A DNA stretch of 64,000 nucleotides, from the IMG/VR virus record IMGVR_UViG_3300025314_000006. One strand, given 5' to 3'. The position numbers and the translations under genes were made by a program. A model generated the notes under the pieces. The model ran no database searches and was not told where the DNA came from. It saw nothing but the letters and a program-made list of their open reading frames with translations. Shown here piece by piece: positions 5,331-59,457 of this stretch. Source of the stretch: a virus (taxonomy: Duplodnaviria > Caudoviricetes). Within the stretch, counting starts at the first letter, position 1, and every line of letters starts with the position of its first letter.

Positions 5331-5403
5331 TTTTTTGATTATCAATATGTCAAATAACTCTGCAAACTTTTAAGTCATTGCTCGACTTGTAAACTTTTTA
5401 AGC

Positions 5404-5435
5404 AACAAAAAACCCGAACCTTTTTTAAGTCCGGG
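5404..5435 (-). terminator. Intrinsic terminator of attenuator 1, upstream of tRNA operon 1
   Basis: CCCGGACTT-AAAA-AAGGTTCGGG followed by TTTTTTGTT. Confidence 0.8.
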
Positions 5436-5475
5436 TGTGTTATGTTGTTTCCCTTTTAAGTTTTTATATCTTACT

Positions 5476-5604
5476 TCATGAAACAAAATGTTTTAACACA
5501 CCCATATTATCGCGGCTATAATCGCCAGGGGTAATACACGCATACCCGACTGTCGGCATGACTGCCCAAATCGTTGTAATTGTTGTATGTGTTAAATTTT
5601 TCAT
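5476..5604 (-). CDS. Attenuator leader peptide 1 (42 aa)
   Basis: MKNLTHTTITTIWAVMPTVGYACITPGDYSRDNMGVLKHFVS*; its GGGTGTGTTA (5494-5503) is complementary to TAACACACCC (5433-5442), which overlaps the terminator 5' arm. Confidence 0.75.
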   Translation of the reverse strand: MKNLTHTTITTIWAVMPTVGYACITPGDYSRDNMGVLKHFVS

Positions 5605-5684
5605 TGAAGATGTTTTCTTTTTAATTAAACTTAAATAGTATAAAAAATTATTTTCTCAAATATTTCTTTCGACCAATTATAACG

Positions 5685-5717
5685 CAAAGATATAATTAAA
5701 GTTTAATAAAAAGCAAA
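5685..5717 (-). promoter_or_regulatory. Bacteroidota primary-sigma promoter for leader 1 and tRNA operon 1
   Basis: TTTG (5714-5717), 21-nt spacer, TATCTTTG (5685-5692); a near-duplicate lies at 14052-14083. Confidence 0.75.
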
Positions 5718-5745
5718 TTTATTTTCATTTATTTTTTATTTAACT

Positions 5746-5810
5746 TGTAAAATCCTGATATTCAGCTAAATAATTTTTTGTAAAATCCTAAACATAATCG
5801 TAAAATCCTG
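5746..5810. repeat. Three direct repeats GTAAAATCCT just upstream of the operon-1 promoter
   Basis: Copies start at 5747, 5780 and 5800. Confidence 0.55.
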
Positions 5811-5916
5811 TCATTGATAATATTAAACAAAAAATCCACAATTTTTTTAAGCAAGGGAGCCAACGAATTTATTCGTTGGAGTATGTCAGTCAATAATATT
5901 TCCTTGCAATTTGTTT

Positions 5917-6120
5917 TTACCAACCTTCTTTAGCAACTCCGGATGCAACTGCAGCTTCTGCGTTAGCAGAGCTCATTATAGCACACATTTTATGTCCTTC
6001 TTTAGTTTCTCCTTTACATACGTATCCACCTTTTGCGTTTTTAGATATGATAGGATTAACGAAAGTTTGTTTGCTTTTTAATTTCATACAATATCCTTCT
6101 AATACGATTAATGTGCTCAT
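5917..6120 (-). CDS. Small DUF5679-like protein, paralog 1
   Basis: GYCMK...KGGYVCKGETKEGHKMCAI; similar to 7515-7715. Confidence 0.55.
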   Translation of the reverse strand: MSTLIVLEGYCMKLKSKQTFVNPIISKNAKGGYVCKGETKEGHKMCAIMSSANAEAAVASGVAKEGW

Positions 6121-6224
6121 GATTTTTAGTTTTAAGTTTTTTATAAATATGAAATATTTTATAAAACAAGTTTTAATATATGTTTATGTTCTAAATTAGC
6201 TTATATTTATATAAAAACAAGCTC

Positions 6225-6395
6225 ATGAAAAATTTAAAAAAAATAATAGAAGAAACAGTAAGTAAAGTTCTGGGTGAAGGCGATTTTTTAACACATCAAA
6301 TAAAAAATTCAATAAGCGTGTTAAATAATGTTTTCAAAGACAACTTAGTTGCAAAGATAAACGAAACAAATGATAAAGATAAACGAAACAAATGA
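6225..6395 (+). CDS. 56-aa N-terminal segment cut off from the downstream ORF by a 22-bp tandem duplication
   Basis: MKNLKKIIEETVSKVLGEGD...; AAAGATAAACGAAACAAATGAT occurs twice (6353-6374, 6375-6396). Confidence 0.6.
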   Translation: MKNLKKIIEETVSKVLGEGDFLTHQIKNSISVLNNVFKDNLVAKINETNDKDKRNK

Positions 6396-6978
6396 TAGTG
6401 TTATTGATGTTTATATTAAGAAATACAATATAAATGCATTAACAAAAATAGATAAAACGATAGAAAATTTAGGATATTTTATTTCTATTTTTAGTATAAA
6501 TGGATTTCAAAAGAAATTTAACAAAGATTCATTTTTTAAAAAAATAAAAGACTTAAAAGAATTAACTCCAATATACCTAAAGCTGGAGAAAAAAATGGAC
6601 TCAAATGAAGATATAGATACAATTATCCCATCTATGTTATATCACATTACACATGAAAGACATCTCGCAAAAATCAAGAAAATAGGTTTAGTTCCAAAAT
6701 CTAAATCTAAAAAATCAGCTCATCCTGAAAGAATATATTTAGCGTGGAATGAAGAATCTGCTATAAAATTAGTAAAAGAATTTTCAGATTTAGAATACGA
6801 ATTTGAACATAATTATGTTTTATTAAAAATTGACACAAGTAAAATTTCTGAGTTTAGACGTGATAAAAATTTCAAATTACATAATGACCCAAACTTTACA
6901 GATGGTTATTTTACATATGATAATATACCTCCTGCTGCAATAAATTTTGAAAATATGAAATTAATAAACCTTGAATAA
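6370..6978 (+). CDS. Tpt1/KptA-like RNA 2'-phosphotransferase or ADP-ribosyltransferase-fold protein
   Basis: LYHIT...IKKIGLVPK...HPERIYLA...VLLKID...DGYFTYDNIPP motifs. Confidence 0.6.
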   Translation: MIKINETNDSVIDVYIKKYNINALTKIDKTIENLGYFISIFSINGFQKKFNKDSFFKKIKDLKELTPIYLKLEKKMDSNEDIDTIIPSMLYHITHERHLAKIKKIGLVPKSKSKKSAHPERIYLAWNEESAIKLVKEFSDLEYEFEHNYVLLKIDTSKISEFRRDKNFKLHNDPNFTDGYFTYDNIPPAAINFENMKLINLE

Positions 6979-7510
6979 TATGAGTTTGTTAGAAAAAATT
7001 AAAATAGAAAGATTTATTTCGGAAGATATTGACGAAGTTAAACAGTTAATTAAAAACATACATTCAAAAATCTGTTTTAATGAAACAAATATTCACATTT
7101 ATAATAATTTAATGTATAAACTTTTTTTTAACGGTTATAGTTTTCTTTTGGATTTTTCATTAAAAGTAACATATAGAAAAAAAATAATAGGAGTTATGTT
7201 ATTATCTGACTTTTCGTTTTATTGGCTATTAGAAACATATAAAGAAGATGACAAAAACATAAGCAAAAAAATAAAAAAATATAAGAACAAAGAAGGTTTA
7301 AGGAGTGTTTTTTTTGGAATTGATAGGAAATATCAAAAAAAAGGATTAGGCTCTAAAATGATTGAATATATACAAAAAAACTATAAGCAGTTTGATTATT
7401 TGTGGGGAATTCAACATAAAGAGATTTCAAATATGGAATTTTTCTTAAAAAGAAGAAAAGTTGTTGCAGAAATAGGAAATTCCGTATATACTGTGCAGGA
7501 TTTGAAATAA
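6971..7510 (+). CDS. GNAT-family acetyltransferase
   Basis: FGIDRKYQKKGLGSKMI acetyl-CoA-binding motif A. Confidence 0.75.
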   Translation: MNNMSLLEKIKIERFISEDIDEVKQLIKNIHSKICFNETNIHIYNNLMYKLFFNGYSFLLDFSLKVTYRKKIIGVMLLSDFSFYWLLETYKEDDKNISKKIKKYKNKEGLRSVFFGIDRKYQKKGLGSKMIEYIQKNYKQFDYLWGIQHKEISNMEFFLKRRKVVAEIGNSVYTVQDLK

Positions 7511-7514
7511 AAGC

Positions 7515-7715
7515 TTAAAACCCTTCTTTAGTAACTCCAGATGCTACGGCAGCTTCTGCGTTGGCTTTACTCATTAATAGACTCATCTTATGTCCATCTT
7601 TACTTTCGCCCTTTGCAATGTACCCACCCTTTTTAGTTAAGCTAATAACAGCATTAACCATTACTCCCTTTGATTTTGTCTTAAGACAATAAGCCTCTAA
7701 TACTACTTTTTCCAT
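7515..7715 (-). CDS. Small DUF5679-like protein, paralog 2
   Basis: AYCLK...KGGYIAKGESKDGHKM...ANAEAAVASGV, shared with 5917-6120. Confidence 0.55.
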   Translation of the reverse strand: MEKVVLEAYCLKTKSKGVMVNAVISLTKKGGYIAKGESKDGHKMSLLMSKANAEAAVASGVTKEGF

Positions 7716-7753
7716 TTTTTTTGGTTTTATAGTAAATATTAAAAATTTTTATT

Positions 7754-8101
7754 TTAAGTCGGTGATGTTATTAATTGAAATTTAGTAGGATGCGACAATC
7801 TATAATCAACTTGTCTTTCATCAACATATTCTCGATAATTAACATAACCTTTAACATATGGAGTTACGCGAGCATCGAAAAAAATAACATCTCCGTTATT
7901 TAACGCTCCTAATTTCTCAAATCCTTTTGTTTTGTTAAACCACAAATGGTCAGTAACAATTTTATCAGACTTATCCTTAATATCTTTTAAGAGTATTGTT
8001 TCTACAGGATATCCATGATAATTCTTCTTTGTTCCAAATTTCTCAAATATTCCACTAAATCTGTCCCGTATATTTTCTATTTTTTCTAAATCTTTTCTCA
8101 T
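7754..8101 (-). CDS. Hypothetical protein
   Basis: 115-aa ORF whose start overlaps the nadD stop. Confidence 0.65.
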   Translation of the reverse strand: MRKDLEKIENIRDRFSGIFEKFGTKKNYHGYPVETILLKDIKDKSDKIVTDHLWFNKTKGFEKLGALNNGDVIFFDARVTPYVKGYVNYREYVDERQVDYRLSHPTKFQLITSPT

Positions 8102-27274: not shown

Positions 27275-27603
27275 TATTTGTATTTTAGTTTAATTACTTG
27301 AATATTTTCTTCATCCCACCAAGCATAATAATTAGGATAAATATTTTTTTCAGTTATAAAAAGCTTTTCTATTTGTTCGGATATTTTTATTTTATTGAAC
27401 TTATTGGTAAGTTTCTCCTTCTCCAAGTTAACAACCTTGTCTTTAGTTTCTATTTTAGCAAGCTCTCTTTTGGCTTGCTTAAACTCAACTTTTAAAGAAT
27501 CTACAATTTCTTTCTTAAATTTTTTTTGATTTTCTAATATTTGCTTCCTGCTGTGCATAGATAAGTTCAAATATAAGCTGTCATTATTTAATGTAAAGGG
27601 CAA
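27274..27603 (-). CDS. Hypothetical protein
   Basis: 109-aa ORF. Confidence 0.55.
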   Translation of the reverse strand: MPFTLNNDSLYLNLSMHSRKQILENQKKFKKEIVDSLKVEFKQAKRELAKIETKDKVVNLEKEKLTNKFNKIKISEQIEKLFITEKNIYPNYYAWWDEENIQVIKLKYK

Positions 27604-27634
27604 ACAATTTTGTTATAATTCCGTTTAAACAACT

Positions 27635-28237
27635 ATGAGTCAGCCGGCAATTAAAGAAAAACAAGAAAAAGTTAAGAATACGCCATGGACAAACATTGGT
27701 ATAAAGGTGGATTTGTGTTCATTTTTGACGAGGAAAGTATTAACTGAAAAGTTTTCTCCTCAAAAAGCTAAAAAAATAGAAATGCGTAATTTCTTTATTT
27801 CGAAGATTGATGGGTGTGAATTATACGTGAATGATATCTATCCTGATTACATATTTTACATTAAAAATATCAATGGAAATAATGAGATTTTAATGGAAAA
27901 AAGTGAAAAAAACAAGACGTTTTATATAAAATATACCGGTATTTGGTCAGTTTTCGAGAGCCTGTACCTACTTGAATACTCTGATATTCAATCATTTACA
28001 CAGATTGCCCTTGAAGAGCTCCTAAAATTACAAGGGTATAAAACTCTCCGCGGGATTCAATGCGTACATTACGGCCTTGAAGAGCTCCTAAAATTACAAG
28101 GGTATAAAACACGGCATCGGGGACAGGCTATTTTGCAAGTCCTTGAAGAGCTCCTAAAATTACAAGGGTATAAAACTGATTGCCCTACAACAATACTTTT
28201 TCCTTCCCTTGAAGATGGTCTAAAATCTAACGATTAA
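27635..28237 (+). CDS. Array-associated protein, paralog 1; reads in frame through the whole mini-array
   Basis: Repeat translates as LEELLKLQGYK three times; high identity to 46803-47249. Confidence 0.7.
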   Translation: MSQPAIKEKQEKVKNTPWTNIGIKVDLCSFLTRKVLTEKFSPQKAKKIEMRNFFISKIDGCELYVNDIYPDYIFYIKNINGNNEILMEKSEKNKTFYIKYTGIWSVFESLYLLEYSDIQSFTQIALEELLKLQGYKTLRGIQCVHYGLEELLKLQGYKTRHRGQAILQVLEELLKLQGYKTDCPTTILFPSLEDGLKSND

Positions 28238-28242
28238 AAAAC
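28009..28242 (+). CRISPR. CRISPR-like mini-array 1: three identical 36-nt repeats, one degenerate terminal repeat, three 30-nt spacers; no cas genes adjacent
   Basis: CCTTGAAGAGCTCCTAAAATTACAAGGGTATAAAAC at 28009, 28075 and 28141; degenerate copy at 28207-28242. Confidence 0.75.
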
Positions 28243-29085
28243 TTCGCAACTTTCTGAACACCCATTGCTTATATCTAAGTCATTGCCATTAATATCGAAT
28301 TGTTCATATTTTGTAGCGTCGTCCATGGCTTTTTCAAATGGTTCCTTGCTTAAATCTATTATTTCCTGAGCCATCATATTTTTTCTGAAAAATCTTAATT
28401 TTTTTTCTGTATTTCCATATTTTTCTTCCATTCTTTTAGGAAAATCAAAATATTCCGGATTTTCAACAGCTATAGTAAGATGTTTTCTTAAACTTTTTTT
28501 CCAACACCACTTACAGTTTCCTTGATAACCTTTAAGTTCTAATCTGAATGGCATTTGATTCCAAAAGAAATTTATTTTTTGTTTTGTCATCGGCATAATT
28601 GAAACCAATGGATAAAAAAGTTTTTCTTCTGCAAATTTTTCATTTACCCGGTCTATCTCATCTACTCTGATTCCGATTGCTGTTTCATAGTCTCTTTTTT
28701 TCCAACCAATAGACCTGGCATAATGTTTTATTGGAACCTGTTTTAACTCCCTTGTGCAGTGTGGAAATTTTATACTTGGTATTGTGTATTTTTTTATTAC
28801 TTCTTCAAATGGTTCGCCTTTGCGACTAGCAGTTTCGAATGTTACGATTTTACTTTTTGTTCCTTTTCCTTTTTCAGAAACAACATCTGCCTCAATCCAA
28901 ACTACTGGAAAACCAAAATGGTCAGAACATTTTTGAACGAAGTCTAAAGTTTGTTCATTCTCTTCTCCAGTGTTGGCAAATACAAAAATCATATCATATT
29001 CATCTTGCTTATTCTTCCAAAGCCACTGAGCCATAAAACCAGATGTTTCACCTCCACTAAAACTTACTAATAATTTTTTTTTCAT
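28234..29085 (-). CDS. PAPS-reductase-family (PP-loop) protein
   Basis: LVSFSGGETSG, FANTGEE, CTRELK, GNCKWCWKK, CSESC. Confidence 0.8.
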   Translation of the reverse strand: MKKKLLVSFSGGETSGFMAQWLWKNKQDEYDMIFVFANTGEENEQTLDFVQKCSDHFGFPVVWIEADVVSEKGKGTKSKIVTFETASRKGEPFEEVIKKYTIPSIKFPHCTRELKQVPIKHYARSIGWKKRDYETAIGIRVDEIDRVNEKFAEEKLFYPLVSIMPMTKQKINFFWNQMPFRLELKGYQGNCKWCWKKSLRKHLTIAVENPEYFDFPKRMEEKYGNTEKKLRFFRKNMMAQEIIDLSKEPFEKAMDDATKYEQFDINGNDLDISNGCSESCEVF

Positions 29086-38803: not shown

Positions 38804-39241
38804 TTAATTACGATTTCTAATTTGAGCTTCCATAGTTAACGCCTTAATGCCGGATTTTATATTTGCGTTATTTTCATCTTCTATTTGTATATCTATTTTT
38901 GAAGTGTCAAAGATCATTCTTAACGAATATCCATCTTCTCCATTTCTGTTTTTTAAAACCATCATTGTGGCTTTCTTAATAACTTTATCCTCATCTGGTC
39001 TCGCAATTCCTAAAATAATATCAGCTGTTTGTGCTTTACCAAGGCTTTCAGAGATTGTATCGAGACCGAACTTGTCTTTATTCATTGAACTATTATGAGT
39101 GTAAATGTCATTTGCAAAAAACATATGTGCATCCTCCACTGTTATATCAACAGTTTCTTCTTCTCCAATTAATTCTATGGACATTATTTCATCTTCTAAA
39201 ATGTCTATTATTGACTCACTTACTATATTCTGTTTTTTCAT
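38804..39241 (-). CDS. dnaB: Split DnaB helicase, C part: IntC (50 aa) plus C-extein
   Basis: ...DITVEDAHMFFANDIYTHN|S splice junction at 39092/39091, followed by ISESLGKAQTAD...KNRNG. Confidence 0.88.
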   Translation of the reverse strand: MKKQNIVSESIIDILEDEIMSIELIGEEETVDITVEDAHMFFANDIYTHNSSMNKDKFGLDTISESLGKAQTADIILGIARPDEDKVIKKATMMVLKNRNGEDGYSLRMIFDTSKIDIQIEDENNANIKSGIKALTMEAQIRNRN

Positions 39242-40472
39242 TTTTTATAAAATTTATACATTTTTCTATTATTTGTTTTTTGTCGTTTTTATAATCTAAC
39301 TCTGGTATTCTTAACACTTCATATCCTTTACTAATTAAAAAACAATCTCTCAAAATATCTCTTTCTTTTTGTTTCGTGGATGAATGCCAAAAATCACCAT
39401 CAAATTCTATTATTTTATTTTCAAATTTAAAATCCACACTTATAACATATATATCATTTTGATATGTATAAAAAACATGTTCCTCATTAAGTTCTGCAAA
39501 ATAACATTTACTTTTTTCGAATTCATCAATTTGTTCATATATGCTCCAAAACAATTCTTGTGATATTTTACTATAATTTTTTAAAAATCTTCCATTAATA
39601 ATAAGCTGTGTAAATCGTTCTTGTCTTTTTATGGGACCAACAATTGGACCATACCTTTCTATATAACCCTCAACAGAATTTGAATAAGAAACTTTTTTAC
39701 AATATTCTTCGTATCTTTTTTTGCCATCAACCTCACCGTATCTTTTTTTAAATGCTTTTAAACTTGTTTTATCCATTGATTTGCAATATTTTTCATATTC
39801 ATCTTTACCTTTTTCTTCGCCATGCTTTTCAATATACGTTTCAAGAGAATTCCTTTTTGACATTCTAATTGAATTTTCATTCCAAATTCTTGTACCTTCT
39901 TCTTCTCCATATATCTCAATGCGCCTTTCTAATGTGGACCCATTTTTCCAATCTCCTTTTTCTTTTTTCTTTTGAATTCCGACTCTCCATTTCTCTAAAT
40001 AAGAATTCCATCTTTTTAAACCCTCTTCTTCTCCATATCTTTCGGTCATTATTTCTAATGATACACTTCTTTTACTTTTTCTAATTTCATCCCAAATTTT
40101 ATTACCCTCATCTTCTCCTAATTTAACAATAAGTTTTTCAAGAGTGACAACACATTTTTCATTTTTTTCATCAAATTGCTTTTGACCCTCAACCTCTCCA
40201 TATCTTAATATGAAAGATTCTAATGATGATGAATTTCTATTAAATTTTTCTTTTATTAATTTTATTCTCGTTATCCAATCACATTCTATATTATTTATTA
40301 TAAAGTCTACTATTAATTTAAAATTGTTATGTATAAAAATTTTATTAAATTCTTCTATAATATTTGTTAATTGTTCTTTTTGAAACTCATTAATTTTATT
40401 AACATCTAAACATTTTAAAGATTTAATATTTAATAATTCTTCTATTGTTTTAAACTTTTTTATTTTTTCCAT
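39216..40472 (-). CDS. Free-standing endonuclease between the split intein halves
   Basis: Repeated (R/K)YGEEEG motifs; C-terminal IIEFDGDFWH...RD Vsr/DUF559-like domain. Confidence 0.8.
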   Translation of the reverse strand: MEKIKKFKTIEELLNIKSLKCLDVNKINEFQKEQLTNIIEEFNKIFIHNNFKLIVDFIINNIECDWITRIKLIKEKFNRNSSSLESFILRYGEVEGQKQFDEKNEKCVVTLEKLIVKLGEDEGNKIWDEIRKSKRSVSLEIMTERYGEEEGLKRWNSYLEKWRVGIQKKKEKGDWKNGSTLERRIEIYGEEEGTRIWNENSIRMSKRNSLETYIEKHGEEKGKDEYEKYCKSMDKTSLKAFKKRYGEVDGKKRYEEYCKKVSYSNSVEGYIERYGPIVGPIKRQERFTQLIINGRFLKNYSKISQELFWSIYEQIDEFEKSKCYFAELNEEHVFYTYQNDIYVISVDFKFENKIIEFDGDFWHSSTKQKERDILRDCFLISKGYEVLRIPELDYKNDKKQIIEKCINFIKNEKTEYSK

Positions 40473-40515
40473 ACATATAAATAGTATGAAAATAAAATTT
40501 TGAGAGCGACACAAA

Positions 40516-41865
40516 CTACTTTTTAGAAAATAAAAAATCTCCTTTTGATAATCCGCTTTCTATAGATTTATATTCATTATTTTTTATTGGAAAAAAATGT
40601 TTTGAAGAACATAATATTTCCTTTCCGCTTTTTAGTTTAATTTTATACACACTTTGTTTTTCAATTGGGAAAATATTAATTACTTTTTTAAAACCAAGAT
40701 GTGTCAAAATTAAATCATTAACTTTTAAGTATTGTATTTCTTTTTTACCATCTGGAGTATCAATTAGAGAATTTAACCCTAAACATCTTCCACTCTGAGA
40801 AGCTGTCCAGATTGGAATATTCATTTCCATTGCCATTCCTCTCAGACCTTCATAAATTGAAGTCAGTGCAAATCTTTTTTCTGAAAAACTTGATGTAGCC
40901 TTCATTATGTCAGCATAATCAATAATAATTACATCTGGCACAATACCTTCTCTTTCTAAAACTTTAAGATGCGATTTAATAGTATTTAAAGACGCTGAAC
41001 CAGTTGGAAATTCCTTAATTATAAGATTTCCACCTTGTTTTGAAATTTCTAAAAGAGTTTCTCTTATTACATCAGGATATTCAATAACATCTTTTAAAGG
41101 TAAACCGGTTAAACACGAATCTATTCTATTGCCAATAGCACTTTCCTGTAACTCGAGTGTATAATATATTACTTGTTTTCCTGCCTTTAATGCAGTACAC
41201 GCAAATTTTACTAACATCATGGATTTTCCTCCACCAGTTGGAGAAAGTATAATTCCAAGCTCTCCACCAGCAAGACCTCCACCTATTTTTGAATCAAGAC
41301 CACTCATTGCCGGAATTGGAGTTCTATATTTTTTTATTAATCTCTTTTCCATATCCTTAAGATAATTGTGACCACTACTTTTTGGCTCACCAACCTTAAG
41401 CGCTTCGGAAATTATTTGAGCTATATTTTCATAATCTCCCTTTTCCCAATTATCAACAGCATCAATAAGTCCCTTTTTTAACGATTGTTTACGACAAAAA
41501 TTTAAAGCAATATCTTTTACATTAAGCTTATCAGTAATTCTCTGTTCTTCAATAAGCCGGATTAATTCAATGAGATTGTCTTTTAATTGTCCTTCGAGTT
41601 CTTTTTCGTTTACTATATCTCTAAGAGTTTGATATTCTGGTATAATATTGTATTTTGTAACAAAATCAAGAATATGCCTAATTAATGTTTTGATATATAT
41701 ACCATCAAAATATTCCGGCTTTAAAATATCTATAATTTGTGTTGAGAATTCGCCTTGTTTATCTTCTATTATAACTTTGATTAACTTTTTTTGAAAATTT
41801 AAATCCAGTAAGGTAAGGGGCTGATTAACATTTTTTATTGCACTATTAATTTCAGTATTTTCCAT
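40516..41865 (-). CDS. dnaB: Split DnaB/gp41-like helicase, N part: N-extein plus IntN (89 aa)
   Basis: SPTGGGKS Walker A, IIIDYAD, IWTASQSGR|CLGLNS...TPDG...CSSKH; intein starts at Cys codon 40785. Confidence 0.9.
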   Translation of the reverse strand: MENTEINSAIKNVNQPLTLLDLNFQKKLIKVIIEDKQGEFSTQIIDILKPEYFDGIYIKTLIRHILDFVTKYNIIPEYQTLRDIVNEKELEGQLKDNLIELIRLIEEQRITDKLNVKDIALNFCRKQSLKKGLIDAVDNWEKGDYENIAQIISEALKVGEPKSSGHNYLKDMEKRLIKKYRTPIPAMSGLDSKIGGGLAGGELGIILSPTGGGKSMMLVKFACTALKAGKQVIYYTLELQESAIGNRIDSCLTGLPLKDVIEYPDVIRETLLEISKQGGNLIIKEFPTGSASLNTIKSHLKVLEREGIVPDVIIIDYADIMKATSSFSEKRFALTSIYEGLRGMAMEMNIPIWTASQSGRCLGLNSLIDTPDGKKEIQYLKVNDLILTHLGFKKVINIFPIEKQSVYKIKLKSGKEILCSSKHFFPIKNNEYKSIESGLSKGDFLFSKK

Positions 41866-46802: not shown

Positions 46803-47249
46803 ATGAAACAATCAACAATCAAAGAAAACCAAGAAAAAATAAAGGATACACCATGGACAAAACTTGGGATAAAGGTAGATTTATGTTCGTTTTTGACGAG
46901 GAAAGTGTTGGTTGAAAAGTTTTCTCCTCAAAAAGCTAAAAAAATAGAAATGCGTAATTTCTTTATTTCGAAGATTGATGGGTGTGAATTATACGTGAAT
47001 GATATCTATCCTTATTACATATTTTACATTAAAAATATCAATGGAAATAATGAGATTTTAATGGAAAAACATGAAAAAAGCAAGACGTTTTGCATAAAAT
47101 ATGATGGCATATGGTCAGTTTTTGAGAGCTTGTACATGCTCCAATATGATGAGATTCAGTCATTTACACAGATTACCTTTGATGAGCTCCTAAAATTACA
47201 AGGGTATAAAACCTGTCTTTTGATTTTCCCTGTTAATTGTTTTCTTTGA
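46803..47249 (+). CDS. Array-associated protein, paralog 2; ends just inside repeat 2 after a 31-nt spacer shifts the frame
   Basis: ...SFTQITFDELLKLQGYKTCLLIFPVNCFL*. Confidence 0.7.
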   Translation: MKQSTIKENQEKIKDTPWTKLGIKVDLCSFLTRKVLVEKFSPQKAKKIEMRNFFISKIDGCELYVNDIYPYYIFYIKNINGNNEILMEKHEKSKTFCIKYDGIWSVFESLYMLQYDEIQSFTQITFDELLKLQGYKTCLLIFPVNCFL

Positions 47250-47414
47250 TGAGCTCCTAAAATTACAAGGGTATAAAACAAAGGTGTTGCAAGATCAAAT
47301 CGTAAAATACTTTGATGAGCTCCTAAAATTACAAGGGTATAAAACGAGACCAGTTATCCGGGCAGGAAGCATAAATGACTTTGATGAGCTCCTAAAATTA
47401 CAAGGGTATAAAAC
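47177..47414 (+). CRISPR. CRISPR-like mini-array 2: four identical 36-nt repeats, spacers of 31, 30 and 33 nt; no cas genes adjacent
   Basis: CTTTGATGAGCTCCTAAAATTACAAGGGTATAAAAC at 47177, 47244, 47310 and 47379. Confidence 0.8.
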
Positions 47415-54096: not shown

Positions 54097-57000
54097 TTAT
54101 TTTATTCTTGCTTGATAGAATCCTCCAATATCGTCAGCGAGAGGAGCATTACTTCCACTTGTAGACTCACCCCAATTTCCGACTATGTTGAAACTCAGGG
54201 TCGCAACACACCACATAGGCTGAACTCGGCCACCAGAGCCATCTATAGACCAAGGTGAGTCATCATATGAAAACGAAATATTATTTATAATAACATCATA
54301 GTTGAACCAATCACCTAATTTTAAATGACTTACAGGTGGATATGTAAAAGAAAATCCTTTGCCAGAAGTATTTCTTGATGGTCTAGTAAGTTTGGATAAA
54401 AATTCCATTCTTGTTAAGAAATCTACTTTATCACCGGAAAAGAAAGCTGGCTGAAACATAAGATCTTTTTTCATTTCTTTTAATCTTTCTTTGGTTTCCT
54501 TAGTTTTTAAAGAAATGTCCCCAGAAGAATTAGTTTCTTCTCCACCTTTAATTAATTCTCTATAAATTTTTCCACCTTCATCTCCATATTTACGATTTCC
54601 CACATTTGAAGAATTATCTTTTTGTTTAGCTTCTAAATTTGAAATTTCGGAATTCAATTCACTTATTTGAGATTTTAAAGTAGAAGTGTTTCCAACATCA
54701 TCAGATGCTATAGCTAATAATTGAGCGTTATATTCAGATATTTGTTTCTTCTTATTTTTTATTTCTACTTCAATATTATCATTTGCTGTATTTATTCCAT
54801 TTTCCGATTCAAAATGTTTACTAAAAGTTTCTGAATATGTTGTTGAATCTTCCCAATTAACACCAACATCAACAGTTTGAGAATAATCAGTTAAAACAAA
54901 AAAGGATATGGAGCCTTCTCTATTTGAATTAGAATAAGTATAAATTGGCTCCGGTCTTCCAAGAAAATCTACCTTATTCCAATTTGCACTATCGCTATTT
55001 GAAAAAGACTTAACATATGGAGGAAAACTCATTGTATGATTAAGAGTAGAATCCCCATTTTGAATAGCGTAATTTTTTATTCTCAATTCAAGGGTCCCAG
55101 CATCTTTACTTGGTTTATAGGGATTGGCTATTGTATATCTGGCATAAGCTTTTTTAGCATTTGGGTCAGCACTAATTAAAAATTTTTTAGTTCTTTGATT
55201 ATAATTTTTAGATAAATCTATTCCTTCTGTTCCGGGAGCATTCTTTATTGTATTTATAATATGAGTAACGCCTCTTTCATGTTTATTAAAATCAACAGCA
55301 ATTGCATCTCCTGGAACTGTGTTTGACATCATAGAAATAGCCGTTCCTATTTCTCCATTTGTTGGTTTTAACAATTGTGTAACAGGAGATATTCCATCAG
55401 AATATTCCCCCGGAGATTGTAATCCTACATATGTTCCACCCTTAGCGCTAACTACTCCTGCTGGAGTTGAATTAGTAGATAATACTTTTTCGTTTTTAAG
55501 CGTACTGTTAGATAATGATAACAGCTCTTTAAACCCTCCAGCGTTATGTCCATTTAATATACTGTATCCATCTAATAAATCATCATATCTATTCCTGAAA
55601 ACATTTTTCTGTAAATTATAAAGTTGAGCAGCATTGGTTATTTTCGCTAAAGGAATTCCAGAATCTGGTTTTGTTTCAAGCCCATAAATTGGTTTTAAAT
55701 TTTTGGTTGCGTCAAGTATTGTTCCTTTAAATTTCATAAGCTCTCTTATTGGAGCGCTCATAATTTCTAAATTAGATACACCTACAAATGTGCTTGTTCC
55801 TCCCATCATTAAAGAAGTACCAAGACCATTAGAATTTCCATTTTTTGTTAATAAATTATGTCTAGTAGCATTTGCAATAGTTATTATAGTATTTGGTCTA
55901 TCAACATTTTTAGATAATAGAGAATTTCTTGTACCTACAGAATCAGATTCTAAGCTTAAATATTGAGGAACATTTGCTGATAATAAATCATTTCTTATAC
56001 TTAATGAATTCTGATCTAAATCAATATTATTTACGACATTACTCGCCAATAATGCATTTCTTGAAATTAGTGCATCTCCATCTAAATCAATAACTACAGG
56101 AACGTTTGCAGCAAGAAGAGCTCCTCTCGGAACCGCAGATAAAACATCTAAATCTGTATTTGACGGAACATTACTAGATAATAATGTGTCTCTTAGAATT
56201 ATTGAATTAGCGTCCAAATCAATATTGTTTGGTACATTGCTTGCCAATAATGAATCTCTTGGAATTACTGAATTTGCGTCTAAGTCAATATTATTTGGAA
56301 CATTACTTGCTAATAGCGTGTTTCTTGGAGCAGTTGAGTTCGCATCTAAATCGATATTCACTGGAACGTTGTTTGCCAATAATGTATTTCTCGGAACAGT
56401 TGAGTTTGCATCTAAATCTATATTCGCTGGAACGTTACTTGATAACAAATTTTCTCTTGCAGTTGTTGAGTTAGAATCTAAGTTAGTATTCGCTGGCACA
56501 TTACTTGCTAATAATGAATCTCTTGGAACAGTTGAGCTTGCATCTAAATCTATATTCGCTGGAACGTTACTTGATAACAAATTTTCTCTCGTAGTCGTTG
56601 AGTTCGAATCTAAATTAACATTCGCTGTCACATTTGCTGAAAGTAATCCATCTCTTGTAATTGTTGAGTTCGCGTCTAAATTAACTTTTGACGGCACATT
56701 TGATGATAGTAAACTTTCTCTTGTTACTGTCGACTTTGAATCTAAATTAATATTCGGTGCCACATTTGATGACAATAAACTATCTCTTGTAGCTGTTGAA
56801 TTTGCGTCTAAATTAGCACTTATAGGAACATTTGACGACAACAAACTATCCCTTGAGATTGTTGAGTTTGCGTCTAAATCAATTTTTGATTGTACATTTG
56901 ATAACAACAAGCTATCCCTTATGGCGGTTGAATTTGCATCTAAGTCAATTTTTTTAGATACATTACTCGATAATAAATTATCTCTTGTAGAAACTGCAGA

Positions 57001-57747
57001 TAAATCAAGATTTATGTTTTTCTCTATATTTTTAAATTCCTGAGCTTCTCTGAACTGGGATGAATCTTTGTCGATATCAATTTTACCTTCAATATTTTTA
57101 GATAAGGAAGCATTTCTTAATTTTAAAGACTCATTATCAATATTGATGTTGGACTTAATATTTGAGCCCAACATTTCTTCTCTTGTTGATATTGCTTTTG
57201 ATTCTAAGTCTAAATTAGCCGGCACATTGCTCGATAATAAATTCTCTCTTACGCTAACAGATTTATCATCAAGATTTATCTTTTTCTCTACGTTATGAGA
57301 AATATTTGAATTTCTTGCATCTTTTGATTGAATATCTAAATTTGTTTCATGAGGAATGTTTTTTGATAATAGATTTTCTCTCACTGAGTCAGATAACTCT
57401 TCTAATCCAACAGAAGATTTAAGTAAACTATTTTTTGAAATTTGTGATTGTCTATAATTTTCTCCAGATATGTCTAAATCGATTTGTTTTTCTACATGTT
57501 TAGAAATCATTGTATTTCTGATGTTTGTAGAATTTTCATCAAGATTCGCTGTAAAAGTTGACTCGTTTTTTGCGAGCATTGTTTTTCTCGTTTCTGTATA
57601 CAAAACATCATAAAGATTCTCCGGCCTCTTTACGTTTTTTGACAAAAGGGTTTTTCTAACTTCAGCAGAATATTGTCCAAAGAAGTGTTCTAACTTCTCA
57701 CGAGCTTGTTGTTCTTCAAATGTTTCGTCATAATATTCTGTTGACAT
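54097..57747 (-). CDS. Baseplate/tail-tube-initiator-like protein with ~27 tandem 22-aa repeats
   Basis: C-terminal SFPPYVKSFSNSDSANWNKVDFLGRPEPIYTY motif; N-terminal LLSSNVPANIDLDANSTxxR repeats. Confidence 0.65.
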   Translation of the reverse strand: MSTEYYDETFEEQQAREKLEHFFGQYSAEVRKTLLSKNVKRPENLYDVLYTETRKTMLAKNESTFTANLDENSTNIRNTMISKHVEKQIDLDISGENYRQSQISKNSLLKSSVGLEELSDSVRENLLSKNIPHETNLDIQSKDARNSNISHNVEKKINLDDKSVSVRENLLSSNVPANLDLESKAISTREEMLGSNIKSNINIDNESLKLRNASLSKNIEGKIDIDKDSSQFREAQEFKNIEKNINLDLSAVSTRDNLLSSNVSKKIDLDANSTAIRDSLLLSNVQSKIDLDANSTISRDSLLSSNVPISANLDANSTATRDSLLSSNVAPNINLDSKSTVTRESLLSSNVPSKVNLDANSTITRDGLLSANVTANVNLDSNSTTTRENLLSSNVPANIDLDASSTVPRDSLLASNVPANTNLDSNSTTARENLLSSNVPANIDLDANSTVPRNTLLANNVPVNIDLDANSTAPRNTLLASNVPNNIDLDANSVIPRDSLLASNVPNNIDLDANSIILRDTLLSSNVPSNTDLDVLSAVPRGALLAANVPVVIDLDGDALISRNALLASNVVNNIDLDQNSLSIRNDLLSANVPQYLSLESDSVGTRNSLLSKNVDRPNTIITIANATRHNLLTKNGNSNGLGTSLMMGGTSTFVGVSNLEIMSAPIRELMKFKGTILDATKNLKPIYGLETKPDSGIPLAKITNAAQLYNLQKNVFRNRYDDLLDGYSILNGHNAGGFKELLSLSNSTLKNEKVLSTNSTPAGVVSAKGGTYVGLQSPGEYSDGISPVTQLLKPTNGEIGTAISMMSNTVPGDAIAVDFNKHERGVTHIINTIKNAPGTEGIDLSKNYNQRTKKFLISADPNAKKAYARYTIANPYKPSKDAGTLELRIKNYAIQNGDSTLNHTMSFPPYVKSFSNSDSANWNKVDFLGRPEPIYTYSNSNREGSISFFVLTDYSQTVDVGVNWEDSTTYSETFSKHFESENGINTANDNIEVEIKNKKKQISEYNAQLLAIASDDVGNTSTLKSQISELNSEISNLEAKQKDNSSNVGNRKYGDEGGKIYRELIKGGEETNSSGDISLKTKETKERLKEMKKDLMFQPAFFSGDKVDFLTRMEFLSKLTRPSRNTSGKGFSFTYPPVSHLKLGDWFNYDVIINNISFSYDDSPWSIDGSGGRVQPMWCVATLSFNIVGNWGESTSGSNAPLADDIGGFYQARIK
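55838..57650 (-). repeat. Coding tandem repeat, 66-nt unit, about 27 copies
   Basis: Units counted in the translation; also produces the antisense shadow ORF 56186-57043. Confidence 0.85.
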
Positions 57748-57968: not shown

Positions 57969-58172
57969 ATGGAAACTATAAAAAAACAAAAAAGAGTTTT
58001 TAACTTTAATTTACCAGATGATCTAAGAGAGTATCTTAAATATAAAGCTAGTTTAAAAAGAACAACAATATCACAACACATTATTGATTTAATTGTTTCT
58101 GATATGGAAATTGAGAAACAAAAAATAACTAAAAATATTAATTGGGGAATAAACAATGAAAGTAAAAACTAA
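57969..58172 (+). CDS. Ribbon-helix-helix DNA-binding protein
   Basis: RVFNFNLPDDLREYLKYKA...TISQHIIDLI pattern. Confidence 0.65.
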   Translation: METIKKQKRVFNFNLPDDLREYLKYKASLKRTTISQHIIDLIVSDMEIEKQKITKNINWGINNESKN

Positions 58173-59457
58173 ATTCACACTAAATGAAGTATTAGACACT
58201 TTAAAAGAAAAGAAACTCAATAGAGACGAGTATTCGTTATTGTATAGTAGCTATGAAACACAGATTGGCAAAGATGGTTATCTGCAATTCAAATTAACAG
58301 AAAAAGATAATTGGAAAAATGTTCATACGCTCGTTAATCAATATTTTAATTCGGAAGAGCACGATAAAAAACATATAGAGCTAATAGAAACTAAAATCGA
58401 AAAATGTTTAGTGACTCATCATGTTAATTTTTTTGAGAAAGAAAACAAGATAAATAATCATCCGGATAACTTATTGTGGTTAGGACTGGATGAACATAGG
58501 ATTTTACATGAGAAAATAATGTGTGAGGTAGTTGACAAAATGTGGAATCCCGAAAATACTGAATACTGTAATTTTGAAGTGCAGAGAGAAAAAATAAAAT
58601 TAGCAGCATCTGAAAATGGTAGAAAGCATTTTGAAATATTGTGGCACGGAGAAAATAATGAAGAGTTTAGAGCAAAAATATTACCTATTCTAATCGAAAA
58701 TGGTAAAAAAATAATGAATGAAAATTGGCATGGAGAAAATAGTGAAGTGTTTAGAGAAAAAATGAAATTAATCAAGAGTGAAAACAATTATGAATTATGG
58801 CACGGAGAAAATAGTGAAGTGTTTAGAACTAAAATATTACCTACTCAAATTGAGAATGGGAAAAAAATAATGAATGAAAGATGGCATGGAGAAAATAATG
58901 AAGAGTACAGAAAAAAAATGAAATTAATCCGTAGTGAAAATAATTATGAATTATGGCACGGAGAAAATAATAAAGAGTTTAGAACAAAAATGAAACCATT
59001 TCAAATCGAATCTGGCAAAAAAGTAATGAAGGAATTATGGCATGGAGAAAACAACGAAGAATTCAGAGAAAAAATGTTAACTGTTGCTATAAATAATATT
59101 TCTGAACATAATGATACTTTTTGGAATGGTGAAGATAATAAATTAAGAAGAAAAGAGCAGAGCGAAAGAATAAAGGGAATATCAGAAAATTTTTGGTACG
59201 GAGAAAATAATGAAGAAAATCGTAAAAATCATGCAGAGAGATTGTCGAAAAGAAATGCTGACCCAGAACATAAACGAAAAGTAATAGAAGGTAAGATATT
59301 TAAAATTTTCAAAAAAATATTAGAAGCAGGAGAAGAAATCTCAAATGAAACTTTCATTAAATACAAATTTAATGGAGCTCCATACCCAATAACTGTTTTT
59401 GGTTCTATAGAAATTGCTATAGAAAAACTAAAAGATTATCATGAAAAGGTTAAATAA
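58156..59457 (+). CDS. HNH-type endonuclease with tandem WHGEN repeats
   Basis: VTHHVNFFEKENKINNHPDNLLWL...EHRILH; 6 near-perfect and 3 degenerate WHGENxExFR repeats. Confidence 0.7.
   Translation: MKVKTKFTLNEVLDTLKEKKLNRDEYSLLYSSYETQIGKDGYLQFKLTEKDNWKNVHTLVNQYFNSEEHDKKHIELIETKIEKCLVTHHVNFFEKENKINNHPDNLLWLGLDEHRILHEKIMCEVVDKMWNPENTEYCNFEVQREKIKLAASENGRKHFEILWHGENNEEFRAKILPILIENGKKIMNENWHGENSEVFREKMKLIKSENNYELWHGENSEVFRTKILPTQIENGKKIMNERWHGENNEEYRKKMKLIRSENNYELWHGENNKEFRTKMKPFQIESGKKVMKELWHGENNEEFREKMLTVAINNISEHNDTFWNGEDNKLRRKEQSERIKGISENFWYGENNEENRKNHAERLSKRNADPEHKRKVIEGKIFKIFKKILEAGEEISNETFIKYKFNGAPYPITVFGSIEIAIEKLKDYHEKVK

Follow-up and report, generated by a model that had tools for sequence, protein, structure and literature searches.

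The window analysed here is the whole stretch of 64,000 nucleotides that was taken from the genome of a huge groundwater phage. On its plus strand, an open reading frame (ORF) of 200 amino acids (27635-28237) joins a conserved domain to three in-frame repeat-spacer units, together termed cassette 1. Residues 1-125 make up the body of a small gene (27635-28008), which doubles as the leader of the array that follows. Three identical 36-nt repeats lie at 28009-28044, 28075-28110 and 28141-28176, with a start-to-start spacing of exactly 66 nt. Repeat 1 opens with the final base of an Ala codon, continues with 11 codons (LEELLKLQGYK) and closes with two bases of a Thr codon, and the ORF contains LEELLKLQGYKT three times, each copy followed by 10 further residues. 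The intervening plus-strand spacers are 30 nt each and unique: spacer 1 at 28045-28074 (GC 0.53), spacer 2 at 28111-28140 (GC 0.53) and spacer 3 at 28177-28206 (GC 0.37). A fourth, degenerate repeat of the LEDGLKSNGYKT type, also seen in the related phage contigs L001 and G001, closes the array at 28207-28242 (28207-28243, with 70% identity, over the 37-nt register of the repeat-finding tool). The ORF ends within this repeat, as LEDGLKSND-stop. Its stop at 28237 overlaps that of a convergent minus-strand neighbour outside the cassette, a PAPS-reductase-like gene (28234-29085; PAPS_reduct, PF01507, E 9.4e-8). A preliminary description, made from the sequence alone, had reported in-frame 36+30-nt units that read LEELLKLQGYK three times and a degenerate fourth repeat lying across both stops, and these coordinates bear it out.

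Allowing up to three mismatches, the 36-mer occurs seven times in the window, three times in cassette 1 and four times at 47177-47414, against 0 of 100 shuffles. Two of the three cassette 1 spacers look foreign by their GC content of 0.53, set against 0.25-0.34 for the window, as had been proposed. Upstream of the gene, an alignment of six cassettes reveals a conserved block before each ATG, composed of AAC, 16 nt and CGTTTAAAC; in cassette 1 it spans 27603-27630 (plus strand) and ends 4 nt before the start codon. This block is a candidate ECF-type promoter of cassette 1, and also a candidate for the 5′ edge of a mobile unit. The protein encoded by the 200-aa ORF is identical to a sequence (P0004) present on 11 contigs.

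Cassette 1 has a sister in the same window. Cassette 2 (46803-47414, plus strand) has a paralogous gene (148 aa) and four repeats, between which lie spacers of 31, 30 and 33 nt. With these lengths the frame is lost after spacer 1, so the ORF stops in the second repeat, and two more perfect repeats follow. Strain variants of cassette 2 carry zero and two spacers. Aligned with their spacers included, cassettes 1 and 2 share a mean nucleotide identity of 87%, and their similarity starts about 12 nt before the ATG; homology between cassettes begins 12-32 nt upstream of it. A third paralog (L005) resides on the same 503,412-bp contig and differs from array L004 by one duplicated unit. This paralog and relatives (L001-3 and L016) bear variant repeats and unrelated spacers of 29-33 nt. 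Cassette 1 alone, with spacers of 30, 30 and 30 nt, cannot separate a length set by insertion from one set by reading frame. The sister arrays can: their spacers measure 27-33 nt, and 8 of the 22 in young arrays break the frame, so that spacer length is independent of it.

Strain comparisons reveal turnover of whole units. In one variant (L058), with flanks 100% identical to those of the window, a lone repeat is followed directly by TAA and the gene ends GYKT-stop. Another (P0174) has spacers 2 and 3 only, where the window has spacers 1, 2 and 3. Further spacers, set between repeats of the terminal-repeat type, appear on contigs from other sequencing runs. The degenerate repeat stands at the distal end in cassette 1 and in the L028, L032, L033 and G004 arrays. 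Accordingly, the gene side behaves as a leader, and the strain variation in unit number fits gene-proximal gain, although it also fits deletions. The terminal repeat of cassette 1 may be read as a relic of an older array state; its G001 type is expected if the gene-proximal first repeat is the one copied at each insertion.

The copies also appear to exchange sequence. Three strain variants of the window cassettes (P0168, P0005 and P0171) are chimeras of paralogous cassettes: in one form the N-terminus of cassette 1 is joined to the C-terminus and spacer of cassette 2, and in another a cassette-1-like gene is combined with the other repeat type and a spacer known from G001. Cassettes 1 and 2 share a tract of about 150 nt in mid-gene that is 100% identical. 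The chimeras and this tract together show frequent gene conversion between copies.

The array of cassette 1 is a genuine CRISPR-type array, with both the anatomy and the dynamics of one. It has near-identical 36-nt direct repeats and unique 30-nt spacers, it belongs to a family of arrays whose spacer lengths ignore the reading frame, it is polarised, with a degenerate repeat at the far end and unit variation that fits gain at the leader end, and its repeat family is physically associated with cas1-cas2 in related phages (below). One usual element is replaced. Where a non-coding, AT-rich leader would be expected, the 374 nt ahead of repeat 1 code for a protein on which purifying selection acts (dN/dS 0.22 between cassettes 1 and 2). 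The preliminary description had held that the first repeat of a CRISPR-type array is the 3′ coding end of a phage gene and that the coding side serves as 'leader'. The first claim is upheld by the frame-breaking sisters, the strain variants and the cas1-cas2 adjacency, and the second agrees with the distal position of the degenerate repeat and with variation in unit number that fits gene-proximal gain.

The small gene belongs to a large family. A profile search returned 401 clusters at E ≤ 1e-3, mostly of 110-180 aa, which share the C-terminal motif (hydrophobic)ExxLKLxG(Y/F)(K/T)(T/P). Many members read second and third copies of this motif, in frame or shifted, which indicates that the array is present across the family. 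The repeat register of one base, 11 codons and two bases is kept in the L028, L032, L033, L035, L036, L037 and G004 arrays. No relative of the small protein was found among 185,579 prokaryote species genomes, and the family, of at least 401 clusters, is phage-only as judged from these sequence searches. Other phage contigs carry up to seven cassettes in 72 kb. In comparisons between phages, homology starts about 30 nt upstream, covers the gene and stops where the array ends. The flanks are non-homologous, so the cassette occurs in unrelated contexts and looks mobile.

The 125-aa domain is modelled confidently by AlphaFold (pLDDT 86.9), in a model where the repeat-encoded residues complete the last helix and supply a short strand. 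The protein has no match in Pfam, PHROGs or the ESM Atlas, and Foldseek found none in the PDB. Against AFDB, Foldseek returned only uncharacterised proteins, 33% and 28% identical and apparently of the same family, and a wide fold search with VIA-align gave no fold match (best Z 4.0). Our best guess is that the small protein is a factor encoded with each array that would serve adaptation or guide maturation.

The window itself contains no cas gene, TnpB-like genes included, and none stands beside cassettes 1 and 2; its large ORFs include no Cas9. The genome from which it derives is RIF_PHAGE_CU_29_17, a manually curated phage genome of 503,412 bp (Al-Shayeb et al. 2020, PMC7162821). The entry for this phage in Table S1 of that paper records a CRISPR-Cas system with Cas1, Cas2 and the interference gene cas14K, of type V, and a Bacteroidetes host profile; the published table is the basis for assigning these three genes to the window's own genome. 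Five related contigs, all fragments, yielded neither Cas1 nor Cas9. In three other related phage contigs, cas1-cas2 end 1-17 nt from a repeat of the family. In L016, an array at 5375-5613 (plus strand) is followed on the minus strand by cas2 (5630-5932; TIGR01573, 55 bits), cas1 (5942-6847; the type II model cas1_NMENI, 289 bits), an ISL3-family transposase (7085-7924) and, beyond it, a TnpB/Cas12f-like gene of 405 aa. In L059 and L060, whose Cas1 proteins are 63-65% identical to that of L016, a repeat starts 8 and 0 nt after cas2, respectively. Both contigs end inside this first repeat, about 30 nt after cas2, and the view stops short of a small gene. Read on the other strand, these repeats encode DLLKLEGYK in L060 and SLLKSEGYK in L059, and they agree with the window repeat at 26 of 30 and 23 of 30 positions, respectively. 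The nearest named relatives of the phage-type Cas1 are type II Cas1 of Bacteroidetes, at about 50% identity.

TnpB-like genes are recurrent neighbours, lying 0.4-1.3 kb from cassettes in L037, L028 and G004, and 0.4-2.6 kb away when L016 is included, in no fixed arrangement. None was found within 5 kb upstream of cas1 in L059 or L060. L016 overlaps phage contig G001, whose left end contains the same transposase and TnpB-like gene at 100% identity. G001 itself starts at the ISL3 transposase element of L016 (7085-7924), and the ISL3 insertion in L016 may have split an effector-cas1-cas2 operon. In two lineages, a 1250-aa SbcC-like gene (Metallophos and AAA_23 domains) is found upstream of the phage-type cas1-cas2, at a distance of 0.6 kb in L059 (650-4402) and 3.4 kb in L060 (1-1554). 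A candidate tracrRNA had been suggested as a search target; no anti-repeat rose above shuffled controls in L016 or at the start of G001.

These findings bear directly on the original reading of cassette 1 as a Cas-less mini-array, in which host Cas1-Cas2 captures spacers and a host Cas9 or Cas13 uses the guides, for example against competing phages. The cas-free window and surroundings of both cassettes agree with it, as does the resemblance of the repeat to cellular class 2 repeats. Since the phage-type Cas1 is about 50% identical to type II Cas1 of Bacteroidetes, the predicted host phylum, host proteins might also recognise these repeats. We nevertheless judge such borrowing unlikely. The phage is listed with its own Cas1 and Cas2, and cas1-cas2 touch the array in relatives; given both, cassette 1 is Cas-less only locally. 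The recommended search for cas genes came up empty in the window and succeeded in L016, L059 and L060. Nor does borrowing explain why distant family members carry the repeat in the same register on their C-terminal codons. Finally, no host array with the window repeat was found in the 185,579 species genomes, nor was any cellular genome found to hold this repeat together with the family gene. The locus accordingly does not fit a viral mini-array of the kind that lacks cas genes and copies a host repeat.

The repeat itself offers only modest hints of affiliation. A pattern scan of species genomes recovered real arrays that share its final 11 nt, one of them beside a Cas9 II-A locus and a second beside a Cas13a-like ORF that scores below the model cut-off. 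Outside the shared 11 nt, similarity to those arrays is modest (shuffle p 0.002-0.05), in tests that compared the 5′ 25 nt of the window repeat with stand-in repeats beside Cas9 and Cas13a-like genes. A resemblance to the S. aureus Cas9 repeat and a Cas13a-like repeat layout had been proposed. The latter did not hold up: the minimum-energy fold of the window repeat is a different pairing from the Cas13a-type hairpin, and the fold is no better than those of synonymous recodings (z -0.39). The repeats of the family fold in different ways, with stems placed differently from one subfamily to the next, so a shared RNA hairpin backed by covariation is rejected, and the conserved repeat stem-loop with an 8-nt 3′ flank that marks type VI-A is not seen. 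A search of Rfam up to E 10 recovered neither CRISPR-DR nor any other family, and G001-G003 contain no Cas13a gene. The only Cas13a-like neighbour of a matching repeat comes from an unrelated Clostridia MAG. Assignment to the Cas13a type through the L025 neighbour was rejected; that protein matches the Cas13a model over its full length but below the cut-off, and has no Pfam or PDB match. In the direction of the cas operon, the family repeat begins GTTTTATA. Given the modest likeness and the unsupported hairpin, this orientation and the type II-like Cas1 are the firmer clues.

The spacers have so far led to no target. A search of 530 kb of related phage DNA with 53 spacers yielded no protospacer, a result that counts against a CRISPR explanation. 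The database comparison recommended at the outset was likewise negative: the three spacers of cassette 1 had no match in INPHARED, and exact 20-mers from cassette 1 spacers 1 and 2 and cassette 2 spacer 3 had none in IMG/VR. Nor did any spacer match its own contig or the window, which covers 64 kb of the 503-kb genome. An origin of spacers as captured flanks of other cassettes was considered and rejected, again for lack of matches.

The behaviour of the reading frame is a feature that a CRISPR array does not require. Across the spacers examined, cassette 1 being left out of the count, the gene frame contains 5 stops in 356 codons against 15-26 in each of the other five frames (353-390 codons), a depletion with a Fisher p of 7.6e-4 that was matched by 0 of 5000 shuffles. 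The signal depends on the age of the array. Young arrays, those with identical repeats (22 spacers of 27-33 nt), lose the frame in 36% of their spacers and show no depletion of stops (6, with 5-13 in the other frames). In old arrays, with diverged repeats, all 25 of 25 spacers are in frame, 24 of them 30 nt long and one 27 nt, and the gene frame holds 2 stops against 10-19 in the others. The frame is broken in cassette 2, L001, L005, L016 and L028, and the preliminary view that units keep frame as a property of the array cannot be sustained. Repeats of different arrays differ chiefly at the third base of codons (42 differences, with 17 and 9 at the other two positions). Substitutions among the repeats of a single array look neutral, with 14 synonymous and 40 non-synonymous.

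One might argue from the old arrays that the main product is the protein: a globular domain with 22-residue units, 12 residues constant and 10 hypervariable, or a library of C-terminal tails exchanged by recombination, for which CRISPR-like insertion only supplies diversity. The stop depletion and the unbroken frame of old arrays speak for this, as do the G004 ORFs examined, which end in or near the terminal repeat, the weak codon-usage and GC3 signal of spacers in the gene frame, and the confidently modelled helix whose end the repeat encodes. So does an extreme case of arrays absorbed into the frame, at L036 4001-6283, where five shortened copies of the family domain follow one another in tandem, with 2-3 repeat units apiece, in a single stop-free ORF of 760 aa. 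We regard this reading as improbable. It is at odds with the frame-breaking, stop-bearing young arrays, with the two perfect repeats that cassette 2 retains beyond its stop, with the neutral look of substitutions within arrays and with spacer peptides that share no common pattern, and it leaves the link to cas1-cas2 unexplained. A protein tandem repeat would be always in frame, free of stops and conserved in its amino acids. The preliminary description had named such constancy as the sign of a protein repeat, and half of it is seen in old arrays only, which are in frame and stop-free; the other half is contradicted, as the spacers are not conserved.

Our reading of these patterns is that units are inserted regardless of frame, and that the arrays that persist would be those with an open frame. 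Because young sister arrays break frame, the full read-through of cassette 1 reflects three 30-nt spacers that happen to be stop-free. On this reading, such read-through is no designed property, though it may be a first step toward old coding arrays. That only frame-keeping, stop-free arrays persist in the long term implies that translation through the array, or the extended protein, matters too. The old arrays thus point to a protein- or translation-level function that CRISPR does not predict.

Taken together, we consider it likely that the phage carries a CRISPR-Cas system of its own, with several dispersed arrays of which cassette 1 is one. Under this model, the phage's own Cas1-Cas2, which are type II-like and have their nearest named relatives in Bacteroidetes, would act in trans on the cassettes; the host Cas1-Cas2 invoked at first would not be needed, as the genome is listed with its own pair and three related contigs encode one. 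Cas1-Cas2 would insert foreign pieces of about 30 nt at the point where the body of the small gene meets its final 36 nt, and every insertion would duplicate those 36 nt. Through this duplication, new units would enter beside the gene, and the old degenerate repeat would stay at the far end. The gene and its array would be co-transcribed from the cassette's own promoter, and the guides would probably be used by a miniature TnpB-like type V effector (Cas14k).

A bolder extension, which we hold only tentatively and think rather doubtful, is that gene plus array constitutes an autonomous mobile CRISPR module. The leader would have turned into a protein gene, the protein would be a new CRISPR accessory factor encoded with every array, for example one that flags the end of its own gene to Cas1-Cas2 or takes part in guide maturation, and ageing arrays would become hypervariable coding repeats. 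Very improbable is a decoy role, in which the cassettes would imitate crRNAs or a leader-repeat junction and so titrate the effector or adaptation complex of the host, either as an RNA anti-CRISPR or as a spacer sink: phages are known to use solitary repeats and mini-arrays as RNA anti-CRISPRs, the cassettes are multi-copy with a candidate promoter each, and protospacers were not found (in 530 kb of related phage DNA, or for three spacers in IMG/VR), but the phage lineage has its own cas1-cas2 beside such an array, a decoy needs neither a conserved protein nor regular spacer turnover, and the 185,579 species genomes offer no matching host repeat.

On the model of a phage-carried system with dispersed arrays, several known systems invite comparison. 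Type II-C CRISPR loci combine a Neisseria-type Cas1 with 36-nt repeats and 30-nt spacers. The phage loci resemble them in the cas1_NMENI match of L016, in 36-nt repeats and a modal spacer of 30 nt, in an array directly after cas2, and in a GTTTTATA start in the cas direction like that of type II repeats. They differ in that the loci and related contigs searched hold no Cas9 and the L016 and G001-start searches no anti-repeat, with a TnpB-like gene instead, and in having a protein gene on the leader side. The Cas-less mini-arrays and solitary repeat units of viruses, including the archaeal SPV type, copy the repeat and leader of the host. The cassettes are likewise short (2-6 repeats), are carried by viruses and in many cases have no cas gene nearby, but their repeat follows the C-terminal codons of a phage gene across at least 401 clusters, in a lineage with its own Cas1-Cas2.

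Overlap between coding and guide functions has a precedent in IS200/IS605 elements, whose TnpB omega-RNA overlaps the 3′ end of the tnpB reading frame. The cassettes share the overlap of a guide-RNA element with a coding 3′ end, with the guide coming next, and TnpB-like genes lie near several of them. Here, in contrast, the overlapped gene encodes a 125-aa protein, not TnpB, and the units form regular arrays of repeats and spacers with a link to Cas1-Cas2. Type III toxin-antitoxin systems (ToxIN) pair 36-nt RNA repeats with an adjacent small protein gene, and the cassettes similarly combine a small protein and tandem 36-nt repeats in one transcription unit. ToxI repeats, however, are spacer-less and precede the gene without overlapping it, and nothing in the cassettes is toxin-like.

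CRISPR leaders are taken to be non-coding, and to our knowledge no described leader is a protein under purifying selection. In the cassettes, the leader-repeat junction lies inside a conserved gene, the last 12 codons of which are repeat 1. If phage Cas1-Cas2 do write into this coding end, this would be a new architecture for an integration site and a naturally occurring example of a single adaptation module that serves many dispersed arrays in trans. It would also show arrays taken over as protein-coding repeats, and the mobile-module extension, if true, would offer a route from immune memory to new protein sequence. The set of parts is compact: Cas1-Cas2, a TnpB-like effector, a small protein and short arrays. 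Such cassettes may account for many of the "orphan" arrays reported in huge phages. The CRISPR-Cas systems catalogued in huge phages, including this very genome, are alike in their compact arrays on phage DNA, with a median of six repeats, and in a miniature TnpB-like type V effector (Al-Shayeb et al. 2020, PMC7162821). Within Table S1 and, by word search, the text of that paper, there is no mention of a first repeat that is the coding end of a conserved gene, of dispersed multi-copy cassettes or of a large gene-plus-array family. Literature word searches likewise returned no description of gene-embedded arrays or of a protein-gene leader. Hence the phage-borne system is already catalogued, and its architecture of protein-gene leader, dispersed and seemingly mobile cassettes, and a large phage-only family in which old arrays turn into coding sequence is one that we found described nowhere.

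Other elements of the window deserve brief mention. In the tRNA region, 5837-5889 matches two segments of L016 (8187-8214 and 9718-9761) that flank its TnpB-like gene, at 100% over 28 nt and 93% over 45 nt; these could be IS200/IS605-type ends or a shared hairpin signal. A tandem repeat at 56145-56990, with a period of 66 (also 132 and 198) and about 10 copies at 71-77% identity, lies inside a minus-strand ORF (54097-57747, 1216 aa) that gave no family match. This looks like a genuine protein repeat, and the 22-residue period that it shares with the cassettes is probably a coincidence. Further tandem repeats (58612-59079; periods 72, 84 and 156) fall in an ORF of 433 aa (58156-59457) that has only a faint GroES-like match. 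Lastly, a DnaB-like helicase ORF (40516-41865) ends in a match to an intein-splicing domain (PF14890), and the ORF next to it (39216-40514) carries a DUF559/REase-like endonuclease domain, which suggests an intein-interrupted helicase.
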